DNA of 43,821 bases from Escherichia phage VerenaMeyer_Bas76. The notes below the pieces were generated by a model that did no database searches, was not told where the DNA came from, and saw nothing but the letters and a program-made list of their open reading frames with translations. Every line of letters starts with the position of its first letter. The stretch's first letter is position 1. The stretch lies in the sequence record PQ850632.1, one strand, 5' to 3'. Made by a program: the position numbers and the translations under genes. Below are positions 4,881-36,863 of this stretch, piece after piece.

Positions 4881-4908
4881 AAAGGCCCCATTAAGGGGCC
4901 TTAGTTTT
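4881..4908. terminator. bidirectional intrinsic terminator (AAGGCCCC-ATTA-AGGGGCCTT)
   Basis: GC-rich hairpin with T-run on the plus side (AGTTTT) and A-run/T-run on the minus side. Sits between convergent genes 4417..4878(+) and 4908..5111(-). Member of a three-copy terminator family (see 12138 and 24196). Confidence 0.65.
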
Positions 4909-5167: not shown

Positions 5168-5233
5168 ACTATTTATTTACGTATTCCAGTTATTCCACCG
5201 AATTGTAAATGTTGGAATAAACTATTCGAATAG

Positions 5234-5262
5234 TTGACTTTTCACTAAAAATATGATAAGCT
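5234..5262 (+). promoter_or_regulatory. candidate promoter TTGACT-N17-TGaTAAGCT overlapped by palindrome ACTATTCGAATAGT
   Basis: -35 TTGACT at 5234-5239; extended -10 (TG at 5254-5255, hexamer TAAGCT at 5257-5262). The 14-bp perfect palindrome at 5221-5234 abuts the -35. Confidence 0.3.
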
Positions 5263-5440
5263 CCACCTGAGCTTGTGAAGTATGAACAAGCGACCGCGGC
5301 GCGGGCAGGTAACGGAGCGGGACGTAAGTCCTGAGTGTAGTTACGCTGACGCGTTCGGAAGGGCCATACTCTATTGCTTGTGTAAAAAGTAACAGGTTTA
5401 CTGAGATTACGCCGTTTCTATGTTTAAATGATAAGGACTA

Positions 5441-5468
5441 GCGCCCCGCTTTATGGCGGGGCTTTACT
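5441..5468 (+). terminator. intrinsic terminator/attenuator upstream of the spanin genes
   Basis: Stem GCCCCGC/GCGGGGC (5443-5449 with 5456-5462) followed by TTTACTT, 19 nt upstream of the Rz-like start. Confidence 0.5.
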
Positions 5469-5486
5469 TATCGAGAAAGGGGAAAC

Positions 5487-5873
5487 ATGAATCTTAAAGC
5501 AACTGTCGTAGCAGGAGCATGTTTCATCATCCTGGTTTACGCACACGGCATCTACCAGTATCGCAGCGGATGGAACGAAGGCCGGGCTAATCTCGTTTCG
5601 CAGCAACAGCAGAAAGCACAGGCTGAGTTAGCGAAGAAAACACAACGGCAGCAGCAGGATGAATCGAAGGCCGCCGCCGCTGACAACGAAGGCAAGACGA
5701 AATCAGAGGTGATTACCCGTGAAGTCGTTAAGTACATTAAAACGCCTGGTCGCAGTGTGTGCGCTTTTGACCCTGAGCGCGTGCAGCTCAAGTCCCGCGC
5801 CGTCGCAAACGCCAACTCCATCCCCGGATACGACGATGATGCAGCCGCCGTGCAAACTGGCACCGCCAAGTAG
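5487..5873 (+). CDS. i-spanin (Rz-like inner-membrane spanin)
   Basis: 128 aa. N-terminal transmembrane anchor (ATVVAGACFIILVYA) followed by a charged, Q/A/K-rich periplasmic region. Contains an out-of-frame lipoprotein gene, the Rz/Rz1 hallmark. Confidence 0.7.
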   Translation: MNLKATVVAGACFIILVYAHGIYQYRSGWNEGRANLVSQQQQKAQAELAKKTQRQQQDESKAAAADNEGKTKSEVITREVVKYIKTPGRSVCAFDPERVQLKSRAVANANSIPGYDDDAAAVQTGTAK

Positions 5874-13942: not shown

Positions 13943-13971
13943 ATAGTACCCTATTATATTGGGGTGTGCAA
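13943..13971 (-). promoter_or_regulatory. sigma70-type promoter TTGCAC-N17-TACTAT (early promoter family copy 2)
   Basis: Minus-strand reading TTGCACACCCCAATATAATAGGGTACTATTCA, identical over about 30 nt to the copy at 5139..5167. Confidence 0.55.
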
Positions 13972-14078: not shown

Positions 14079-14495
14079 ATGAAACTTTCTGATTTCTATT
14101 TTGCCGACCGCCACGCCGCCGGTACTAAAATGCCTATCCTTCTGCCCAGTGGTAAAGATTCCGGTGAATGGTTGCAGGTCATCGGCCCCGATTGTGACGC
14201 TGGTGTTCGTGCGGGCCGTGCCTACACAACGGCAATTCGACGCCTTACGGAAGAACTTGCGCCATTAGATAAAGAGTGCGAGGCGCTGAATAACTGGGCG
14301 CGCTATAATGATGAGAAGGGCTGGCGGGTGATGGACCTGAACAAGCAGCTTGCCGTGGAAATCGTCACCGGTTGGTCATTCGACGAACCATTCAGCAAAG
14401 AGGCGCTTGCTAACCTGTTCGACCAGTACAGTGGGTTGGCAGAGGCCGTAGTTAAGCATCACACCGATAGCCGCGAGAAACTCTCGGAAAAGTAA
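14079..14495 (+). CDS. tail assembly chaperone (G-like)
   Basis: 138 aa, immediately upstream of the tape measure gene. The -1 frame stays open from about 14480 to 14857, allowing a G-T style fusion. Confidence 0.6.
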   Translation: MKLSDFYFADRHAAGTKMPILLPSGKDSGEWLQVIGPDCDAGVRAGRAYTTAIRRLTEELAPLDKECEALNNWARYNDEKGWRVMDLNKQLAVEIVTGWSFDEPFSKEALANLFDQYSGLAEAVVKHHTDSREKLSEK

Positions 14496-36011: not shown

Positions 36012-36190
36012 TTCACGTTCTCCTTAATCCATGCTTCGACTTTATTACGGTCAAATGTTCCCGGTAAACGGCGGCCCATAACCTTAATACAGCAGTCAGG
36101 GAATTTGCCGCTGCGCAACCAGTTATTAATGGTCTGACGTGTCACCCCGATACGTTCAGCTACTTCATTCTGCGTCATATAATGCGACAT
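36008..36190 (-). CDS. AlpA/excisionase-like HTH DNA-binding protein
   Basis: Motif MTQNEVAERIGVTRQTINNWLRSGKFP. ATG at 36190 preceded by AGGAGAT; the ORF track extends to 36304. Confidence 0.55.
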   Translation of the reverse strand: MSHYMTQNEVAERIGVTRQTINNWLRSGKFPDCCIKVMGRRLPGTFDRNKVEAWIKENVK

Positions 36191-36287
36191 TTTTATATCT
36201 CCTGTTTGTTTGGTGAAACTGAGTATAGGATAGCGGGAATGTAAAAGCAACCAATCTCTGTAATATTTAATCTTTACAAAAATGTTA

Positions 36288-36317
36288 TTGAAAGTTCTTG
36301 ACACATGTTTGTATAAT
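36288..36317 (+). promoter_or_regulatory. candidate promoter TTGAAA-N18-TATAAT
   Basis: -35 at 36288-36293, -10 at 36312-36317. Directs transcription into the non-coding region 36325-36540. Confidence 0.3.
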
Positions 36318-36344
36318 GGTTTTGGGACTTGTATATATTACGGA

Positions 36345-36376
36345 GTTGACGAACCCTCCCCGAGGGATTCGTCAAC
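36345..36376 (+). other. long imperfect hairpin (GTTGACGAACCCTC / GAGGGATTCGTCAAC) in the control region
   Basis: 14-bp stem with one bulge and a 3-nt loop, seen directly. Flanked by two copies of the 12-mer AACCCTCCCCGA (36352-36363 and 36568-36579). Confidence 0.5.
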
Positions 36377-36516
36377 CCCTCCCAGACAGCTGAGATGCTT
36401 GCCTTGGGGTTTAAGGATAAGTGTATCTAAATCTCATTTAAAGAAGTAACCCGCTGAAATATCTACTGTTTCTTAATGTGCCGTAGATTCGCAACCGTAA
36501 AAATGTAACGATTATT

Positions 36517-36540
36517 GGGCAGGCTTAAGCCTGCCCTTTA
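36517..36540 (+). terminator. terminator-like hairpin GGGCAGGC-TTAA-GCCTGCCC plus TTTA
   Basis: Perfect 8-bp GC-rich stem with a short T-run. Confidence 0.4.
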
Positions 36541-36608
36541 GTTACCAAGTAATAAGAATAAAGGCACAACCCTCCCCGAAGAATCACAACGGCAACGTAA
36601 CTATTCTC

Positions 36609-36637
36609 TTGCACACCCCAATATAATAGGATACTAT
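36609..36637 (+). promoter_or_regulatory. sigma70-type promoter TTGCAC-N17-TACTAT (early promoter family copy 3)
   Basis: TTGCACACCCCAATATAATAGGATACTATTCA followed by the leader CGAAACGAGACAGAGGAG. Confidence 0.55.
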
Positions 36638-36662
36638 TCACTTATCGAAACGAGACAGAGGA

Positions 36663-36863
36663 GTGGTGGTTATGTTTAAGAAGGGTCAGTTGATTAAAAC
36701 GATGTACGGTAGCTTAGGTATTATTGAAAAGAAATCGGCAGTGTACCGAAGTTCTTATGTCGTTAGCTTACTCAGGGAGCACGGGTTAAGTTCCGCGGCG
36801 TATTACCAAGAGTATGAAATGAAACTAATTGGCAACAATTTTAAATTCAAAGGGGTGAAGTGA
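36663..36863 (+). CDS. hypothetical early protein (66 aa)
   Basis: First ORF after promoter copy 3. GTG 36663 or ATG 36672. Confidence 0.45.
   Translation: MVVMFKKGQLIKTMYGSLGIIEKKSAVYRSSYVVSLLREHGLSSAAYYQEYEMKLIGNNFKFKGVK

Follow-up and report, generated by a model that had tools for sequence, protein, structure and literature searches.

The long gap between the two divergent early operons of Escherichia phage VerenaMeyer_Bas76 raises the question of whether it encodes an RNA of its own and, if so, how that RNA acts. The stretch analysed here (the window) is the 43,821-nucleotide (nt) sequence of record PQ850632.1, and the segment in question occupies positions 36288 to 36608, between the leftward replication genes and the rightward small early genes. 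The original prediction, made from the sequence alone, was that this segment holds a promoter, two hairpins, and a repeated 12-mer, which together would mark either an untranslated RNA of roughly 200 nt or a replication origin. All of the listed promoter, hairpin, and repeat features were present where they had been placed, and the RNA is backed by comparison with related phages and by a second cassette in the same genome. We consider it likely that a real non-coding RNA cassette lies here. For the fuller proposal, that positions 36288-36545 form a self-contained early unit for a structured non-coding RNA from the + strand, working in cis as a leader with a leaky terminator, we judge the chances to be even.

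The cassette opens with a predicted sigma-70 promoter whose hexamers lie near the consensus and whose spacer falls within the 16- to 18-nt range (Table 1). Sites with 11 of 12 hexamer matches occur only four times in the whole window, this one included, and in other phages with the same type of cassette (type A, as defined below) the promoter is identical save for changes in the spacer. The record of phage fBC-Eco01 marks the same site as a host promoter and annotates the terminator too, in both cases as software predictions; the fBC-Eco01 paper reports no more than total numbers of predicted promoters and terminators. No open reading frame (ORF) of at least 8 codons preceded by a Shine-Dalgarno (SD) sequence was found on the + strand between 36318 and 36610, and the 222-nt type A RNA folds with a predicted energy of -72.4 kcal/mol (z = -4.5, with 0 of 200 shuffled sequences folding as well). 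Its 5' hairpin is the structure with a stem of 14 base pairs (bp) described originally, interrupted by one bulged A. At the other end, the terminator-like hairpin first placed at 36517-36540 was recovered as a perfect palindrome, GGGCAGGCTTAAGCCTGCCC, at 36517-36536, followed by TTTAGTT. Its stem has 8 bp, 7 of them G-C, and the tail UUUAGUUACC contains 5 T in 8 positions and passed the scan rule, with a run of only three consecutive U (UUUAGUU). The reading of this span as an untranslated RNA of about 200 nt is supported because every type of locus in the related phages keeps a strong + strand promoter together with a long hairpin and one of the 3' hairpin modules, and because a second cassette of the same layout in this genome has a fold backed by covariation.

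The comparison covered the gap between the helix-turn-helix (HTH) gene and the first rightward gene in viral contigs and GenBank phages, giving about 50 distinct related loci, and types were assigned by motif to the 420-nt stretches upstream of a conserved anchor. Distant relatives of the HTH protein were excluded, their contexts being unrelated. The gap is mostly 450-490 bp long, is longer where an extra gene has been inserted, and reaches about 970 bp in Salmonella Jerseyviruses. Its right end, made up of GAATCACAACGGCAACGTAAC and then a 34-mer promoter, is nearly invariant among relatives. The locus is occupied by no fewer than five 5' modules that show hardly any mutual sequence similarity, or none that could be detected: A, B (in two subtypes), C (including a Jerseyvirus form), and D. 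The distinct 420-nt stretches numbered 5 for type A, 20 for type B (with a recognised 3' module), 19 for type C, and 3 for type D; the window carries type A, which occurs in about 20 phage records. At its left end, each type carries a strong + strand promoter of its own (TTGAAA-18-TATAAT in A, TTGACT-17-TGnTAAGCT in B, TTGACA-17-TAAGGT or TAAGTT in C, and TTGACA-16-TAAAAT in D), followed by a long imperfect hairpin and then by a 3' hairpin module. In position, the type A 5' hairpin corresponds to the long hairpins of types B, C, and D. Three 3' modules (t1, t2, and t3) share one layout, with an outer stem, an internal loop, and a GC inner stem, and differ in the sequence of the outer stem; the combinations found were A+t1, B+t1, B+t2, B+t3, C+t1, C+t2, and D+t2. 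A U run is absent from two of the three modules, t2 and t3.

Promoter and 5' RNA domain appear to be exchanged as whole units by recombination, because the 3' half of the window's cassette (36454-36560) is widespread, at 87-100% identity in 334 records, 266 of which are Salmonella phages, and the 5' half is confined to only 20. A recombination joint can be seen in the alignment itself, where loci L213 and L015 combine a type B 5' module with t1. The exchange joints lie immediately after the leftward -35 (~36250) on the left and at ~36469 internally, and the predicted leftward promoter is thus placed by the alignment at the left border of the exchangeable cassette. Substitutions within the modules point to paired RNA. 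Type C hairpins show stem swaps around interchangeable tips, with the compensatory stems GUAAG/CUUAC, GUAAU/AUUAC, GUAAA/UUUAC, and GUGAG/CUCAC and one G.U intermediate, GUGAG/CUUAC. In the inner stem of t1, a C-G to U-A variant (GGGCAGGT..ACCTGCCC) occurs seven times across the fetched loci, and an A-U to G.U variant reads GGGCGGGCC..GGCCTGCCC.

The second cassette of the genome, of type B, lies near 5.2 kilobases (kb). It consists of a 108-nt core (5269-5377), about 50 nt more, and a terminator with the inner stem GCCCCGC/GCGGGGC and the tail UUUACUU; the layout of this terminator matches that of the t1 hairpin, with a different outer stem (GAUAAG/CUUAUC), and in one variant the inner stem becomes GCCCTGC/GCAGGGC, a compensatory C-G to U-A change. 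The type B core is found at the 36-kb locus in many sister phages. In the window, the cassette stands back-to-back with a copy of the 34-mer promoter, and its terminator ends about 25 nt before an Rz-like spanin gene, with the head genes next. No other promoter was found between the cassette and the Rz-like gene/head block, and the upstream + strand operon has its own terminator-like hairpin at 4882-4902. This copy is strongly conserved: 168 of the 180 phage records found have it at 95-99% identity, and 10 more at 99% or above. Against Salmonella phage S102, identity is 96-99% for the cassette and 65-91% for the genes that flank it, among them the major capsid gene; between E. coli and Salmonella phages, the cassette sequence is therefore better conserved than that of the capsid gene. 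One record annotates a 36-amino-acid (aa) ORF inside the cassette, and 1-nt indels among near-identical copies destroy it, so that coding is ruled out for this cassette. In one-per-species bacterial genomes, a 19-base pattern gave 13 matches, approximately the number expected by chance, with a single true copy in a mis-binned phage contig. That 6.2-kb contig (JAEWLW010000073), filed under a 'Bacillota bacterium' metagenome-assembled genome, holds the type B core at 95 bits and is probably a misplaced Guernseyvirinae contig. A 14-mer scan of viral contigs for further copies was too unspecific to be used, and the leader before the gene at 14079, considered as a third cassette, showed no significant structure (z -0.3).

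For the type B core, we aligned 30 distinct sequences, compared two possible structures, and constructed a covariance model, R1. In the model-fitted alignment, 97.5% of cells are paired, and changes of both partners are seen in 8 of the 27 pairs, over 65 cells. The alignment has a covariation score of 0.272; shuffled alignments score 0.102, none of 500 attaining the real value, and controls with slid partners score no more than 0.051. An unfitted MAFFT alignment points in the same direction (93.6% paired; 0.198 versus 0.104). The predicted fold begins with a 5' hairpin, P1, and continues with a long irregular hairpin made up of a long-range helix H2, P3, an internal loop conserved as GGAG/UGAGUGUAG, and a variable apical P4. 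A local hairpin, P2, and the long-range H2 both pair well, and alignment column 32 covaries with 91 or 93, showing three pair types and not a single break, a pattern that favours H2. G.U pairs account for 96 of 810 cells, and three pairs are G.U in 26-27 of the 30 sequences. The fold points to a + strand RNA rather than to DNA, because the conserved G.U pairs become A.C mismatches on the other strand. Within the window, R1 recognises only 5269-5377 (129 bits, E 5e-32).

Taken at the 36-kb locus, the proposed mechanism would begin with initiation by host sigma-70 RNA polymerase at ~36324. Transcription would pass through the 14-bp 5' hairpin and a spacer of about 130 nt to the composite GC hairpin and the UUUAGUU that follows it. 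Acting in cis as a promoter-proximal leader, the leaky terminator would stop most transcripts and release a stable RNA of about 220 nt, and the remainder would read into the rightward operon. At this locus, a strong promoter and a folded RNA would matter, and not a particular sequence. A cis leader is favoured because the U runs that exist are short (UUUA), and a cis leader or attenuator is favoured over a sequence-specific regulator acting in trans because structure is kept at the 36-kb locus as sequence is freely replaced. Where the 3' module is t2 or t3, transcripts would meet no U run and therefore continue into the operon as a longer RNA. At 5.2 kb, read-through into the lysis and head genes is predicted because the cassette promoter is the only recognisable one there and the upstream operon is terminated at 4882-4902.

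The closest known arrangement is the late leader of phage lambda, in which the PR' promoter produces a 194-nt '6S' transcript that ends at the tR' terminator and is read through after modification by Q. Both loci resemble it in having a strong constitutive sigma-70 promoter, an untranslated RNA of about 200 nt, and a terminator ahead of an operon, with read-through predicted, and the 5.2-kb cassette resembles it further in preceding lysis (Rz-like) and head genes. Unlike the lambda leader, our loci come with no Q-family protein among the 20 proteins scanned and no demonstrable Q-binding or pause element, the 36-kb locus has a second promoter after the terminator, and the type B cassette RNA is highly structured and covarying, which is not known to be a requirement of the lambda leader. 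The put sites of HK022, of about 70 nt with two stem-loops, and the nut sites of lambda offer a second parallel: at putL/putR and nutL/nutR, as here, a structured RNA follows each of two strong promoters at operon heads, and structure is kept over sequence. Set against the general description of put, and against nut, the two cassettes differ in not being detectable homologues of each other and in a conserved UCUAUU island that does not agree with boxA. This island reads AUCUCAUUU in type A, GUCUAUUGU in B, GCUCUAUUC or GCUAUAUUC in C, and GUCUAUUUA in D; judged by eye against the boxA consensus (CGCUCUUUAACAA), no boxA with a boxB hairpin was found, and GCUCUUU is not kept. The early leader of T7 is similar in its strong host promoters, its untranslated leader, and its hairpin of lower stem, internal loop, and upper stem before the first early gene. 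RNase III needs roughly two helical turns, and, unlike the T7 RNase III hairpins, the composite hairpin is only ~13 bp long and carries a short U run.

Several findings weigh against this cis-leader proposal. A conserved promoter of the rightward operon follows 70 nt downstream, and a leader role is therefore not required at the 36-kb locus. Among 20 neighbouring proteins scanned against PHROGs and Pfam, most of them of unknown function, there was no member of a Q, N, or other antiterminator family. The one transcriptome study of a related phage is silent about intergenic or non-coding RNA. For type A itself, the opposite strand of the segment folds equally well (z = -5.5), and the loci read are nearly identical, with an invariant 5' hairpin, and therefore afford no covariation test of that hairpin. 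A few central substitutions misfit the predicted central pairings, which, together with the similarity of the loci, leaves the 5' hairpin and the t1 hairpin as the only robust elements of the type A structure. R1 detected nothing at 36.3 kb or in type A, C, or D loci, and an nhmmer profile built from the central region in types B, C, and D missed type A; on these two results, type A was rejected as a homologue of type B. By sequence, type A is the positional counterpart of type B, with which it shares t1, and not a detectable homologue. The case for a role of type A at the RNA level is built on its position, its promoter, and its modelled folding energy.

A close rival is a free small RNA acting in trans, as a regulator of host or phage mRNAs or as a decoy for a host RNA-binding factor or defence system, with specificity carried by the variable 5' hairpin and the 3' end set by the terminator. 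The independent promoter-to-terminator unit without an ORF would suit such an RNA, as would the separate promoter of the rightward operon, which makes the unit unneeded as a leader, but the U run in the tail UUUAGUU is too short for a typical Hfq-type terminator, and for the many relatives with t2 or t3, where there is no U run, a defined 3' end is not to be expected. The hypervariability among alleles at one locus would be compatible with an arms race, and several types have C/U-rich single-stranded stretches; yet no conserved single-stranded seed is common to the types. Nor is an antisense target apparent within the phage, where matches to the remaining sequence do not exceed 11 nt. Among 5,426 complete E. 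coli genomes there were no matches to 36200-36680 and no copy of the type B cassette. The high identity of the 5.2-kb cassette between E. coli and Salmonella phages, relative to its flanks, fits a sequence-specific partner, but that cassette is placed where read-through would be obligatory. We regard a trans-acting RNA as a tentative reading of the whole, and the choice of a cis leader or attenuator over such an RNA as about an even one. Lambda oop is antisense to cII and lies beside the replication genes. The cassettes resemble oop and other phage non-coding RNAs known from transcriptomes in being short, ORF-less transcripts, here predicted, that run from promoter to terminator in early control regions; unlike oop, they have no antisense target that we could find within the phage.

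A phage promoter-to-terminator non-coding unit or leader is a known kind of element, and what is new is the family and its allelic, modular behaviour. No Rfam 15 family reached the gathering threshold anywhere in the window. Permissive Rfam scans of 36100-36800 and 5200-5500 gave best E values of 0.5-10, and 14 related loci gave none at E up to 1, the best being 3.9 and 4.4. The literature searched contains no description of a cassette RNA, or of an origin, in these phages. Guernseyvirinae (Kagunavirus and Jerseyvirus) are common therapy and biocontrol phages whose regulation is essentially unstudied, and existing records leave the cassette gaps empty or fill them with apparently spurious small ORFs. 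The present analysis yields a transcription-unit map of the early control region, and the type B core, supported by covariation, could become a curated RNA family. It is unusual for a single genome to carry both an ultraconserved and a freely replaceable copy of one kind of unit. More speculatively, the two cassettes could be members of an undescribed class of phage regulatory RNA, an ultraconserved gate to the lysis and head genes and a hypervariable, allelic early member, acting as processive antitermination elements (protein-independent or protein-assisted) or as decoys for host RNA-sensing defence. We think this rather doubtful; if it were true, the swapping of promoter-plus-RNA modules would represent selection for new specificities.

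The alternative raised originally, that repeats and hairpin mark a replication origin, fared worse. An origin, or a transcript that activates one or primes replication, would sit beside the primase-helicase operon, with transcription opening the DNA or leaving a primer; T4 origins, ColE1 RNA II, and lambda oop are models of transcription-opened or RNA-primed origins. The locus is suitably placed at the divergence point, next to the replication genes (HTH_17 and the AAA_25 helicase-primase), with an AT-rich stretch between the divergent promoters, but it contains no tandem repeats or iterons. DnaA-box-like sites number 35 against 33.9 expected, with a single one-mismatch site in the gap. The cumulative GC-skew minimum at ~35-36.5 kb coincides with the switch in gene orientation and is therefore non-discriminating. 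Retention of structure and transcription at the locus, as opposed to sequence, would agree with an origin opened by transcription, but the conserved G.U pairs and compensatory changes in relatives indicate a folded RNA, which transcriptional activation alone does not need, and the skew shows no change around the second cassette, which lies among the structural genes. The only exact repeat, the 12-mer, is not conserved. As predicted, AACCCTCCCCGA occurs at both 36352 and 36568, and AACCCCTCCCAGA at 36374 is a degenerate third copy; by our own estimate, an exact pair is improbable by chance (~0.007 expected). In other type A phages the second site reads AACCTTCCCTAA or AACCCTACCTGA, and in type C phages the second copy is present without the hairpin. 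The 12-mer was rejected as an iteron or pairing partner on the grounds that relatives do not conserve the copy at 36568 together with the one in the hairpin, and for the same lack of conservation in type A, and its presence without the hairpin in type C, we treat the repeat as incidental. Overall, we consider an origin very unlikely.

It is equally improbable that the gap is just a crowded control region of divergent promoters and HTH operators, with hairpins that are incidental or act as an insulating terminator and an RNA without function: an inverted repeat around the cassette -35, an operator-like palindrome on the rightward promoter that recurs to give seven in the window, and a type A hairpin without covariation support whose two strands fold equally would all suit it, but more than 200 nt of untranslated sequence is kept between promoter and hairpin in every type, type C stems and the 3' hairpin show compensatory changes, type B covaries strongly, and the cassette recurs at a second locus.

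Table 1. Coordinates of the predicted features at the 36-kb and 5.2-kb loci of the window
Feature	Position	Strand	Remarks
Cassette promoter TTGAAA-18-TATAAT	36288..36317	+	11/12 sigma-70 matches, spacer 18
Predicted untranslated RNA, ~220 nt	36324..36545	+	Predicted ends: 7 nt after the -10, and the U run
Type A 5' hairpin	36345..36376	+	Arms 36345-36358 and 36362-36376; 14-bp stem with one bulged A; CCC loop
3' module t1 (GCCGU island at 36478-36486)	36469..36583	+	Common to type C and some type B
Composite terminator-like hairpin	36505..36545	+	Outer stem GUAAC/GUUAC, internal loop (3' side UUUA), inner stem GGGCAGGC/GCCUGCCC
Type B cassette	5222..5472	+	Palindrome CTATTCGAATAG, promoter, RNA core 5269-5377, composite terminator 5430-5472
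Type B promoter TTGACT-17-(TGa)TAAGCT	5234-5262	+	Second cassette
Inverted repeat TACAAAAATGT/ACATGTTTGTA, candidate operator	36275..36313		11 nt, 91% complementary, 17 nt apart
C-rich repeats AACCCTCCCCGA and AACCCCTCCCAGA	36352-36363 and 36374-36386	+	Further AACCCTCCCCGA copy 36568-36579
Leftward promoter of the HTH-to-primase operon, TTGCTT-17-TATACT	36222..36250	-	Read from sequence; absent from the original prediction
Near-invariant element GAATCACAACGGCAACGTAAC, upstream of the rightward promoter	36581..36601	+	Nearly unchanged across all cassette types
Conserved rightward early promoter TTGCAC-17-TACTAT, palindrome AATAGGATACTATT over the -10	36609..36638	+	Outside the cassette; right border

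The window belongs to Kagunavirus (Guernseyvirinae). Its structural genes run rightward (1 to ~24 kb), its replication genes leftward (~24.4-36.2 kb), and its small early genes rightward from 36.67 kb; the leftward replication block closes with a helicase-primase (AAA_25, 740 aa) and an HTH protein (HTH_17, 60 aa). The HTH gene has its conserved start codon at 36193 (ATG) rather than at an upstream GTG, and the gap between the operons is about 478 bp (36194-36671) instead of the 358 bp first reported. Escherichia phage vB_EcoS_XY2 matches region 36200-36680 at 100% identity and Bas75 at 99.8%; in all, the region has matches in 392 phage records, nearly all of Kagunavirus or Jerseyvirus. The Bas75 record annotates 'hypothetical protein' genes inside the cassettes, at 36274-36375 (-), 36525-36641 (-), and 5282-5392 (+), which are probably spurious calls; close relatives have 1-nt indels that break the third. 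On the left of the gap, the -35/-10 pair of the leftward promoter is kept in three differing versions of the segment, with TTGATT-17-TATACT and TTGTGT-17-TATAGT aligned to it in relatives. The arms of the inverted repeat TACAAAAATGT/ACATGTTTGTA (36275-36285 and 36303-36313) bracket the type A -35 and overlap the promoter spacer, and we regard the repeat as a candidate operator; its left arm occurs in type B loci too. On the right, the early promoter expected at 36609 was found as TTGCAC-17-TACTAT at 36609-36637. Just 5' of its -35, within the near-invariant element, lies a direct repeat, CAACG-G-CAACG (36585-36595), which could bind a protein.

Further observations concern individual cassette types. 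In the Salmonella Jerseyviruses, a stretch of about 970 bp (positions ~620-1600 of the retrieved loci) has no annotated gene. It holds a type C cassette with t1, then duplicated 'AATAAAGGCAC...ACGGCAA' modules and GC-rich hairpins, and an SD-preceded short ORF (MVRVLV...) whose length varies, and it has no Rfam match. Two loci with type B and t3 carry a (CTCA)n microsatellite of 3-6 copies just 5' of a UUCG-loop hairpin, and its length differs between near-identical phages. In types B, C, and D, an island AAGTnnCTGAT, aligned with ~36455-36470, reads on the minus strand as WATCAR-N4-TTR, similar to an IHF site, and the positions that vary are the degenerate ones; neither type A nor the 5.2-kb copy keeps the fit. 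An RNA anti-CRISPR, mimicking a repeat of the clustered regularly interspaced short palindromic repeat (CRISPR) type, was considered and rejected, the best Rfam CRISPR-DR hit having E = 3.9 at a type C locus. The stem CCCCGC/GCGGGG, which we take to be that of the E. coli I-E CRISPR repeat, has its 6 bp in common only with the long hairpin of type D and with the 5.2-kb terminator. Hairpins with this stem lie in two type D loci and at 5443-5462 of the window, and in type D the stem is followed by UAAAC, presumably as in the repeat.

Finally, the 34-mer of the rightward early promoter occurs three times in the window and its palindromic motif, AATAG-N4-CTATT, seven times. The motif covers the -10 or the spacer of seven promoters, at 36625, 38041, 33027, 32983, and 30683 on the + strand and at 13955 and 5151 on the - strand; three of these seven are leftward promoters of the form TTGACA-17-TATAGT. 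The fBC-Eco01 paper lists the motif as a phage RNA polymerase promoter. No phage RNA polymerase was found in the annotated stretches read or among the 20 proteins scanned, which do not cover the genome in full. From its placement, the motif is probably a common operator of a phage HTH regulator. At the second cassette, the perfect palindrome CTATTCGAATAG (5222-5233) abuts the type B -35 and has the half-site of this operator motif in everted order, and a regulator of the motif might shut the early promoters and act on the 5.2-kb promoter too.

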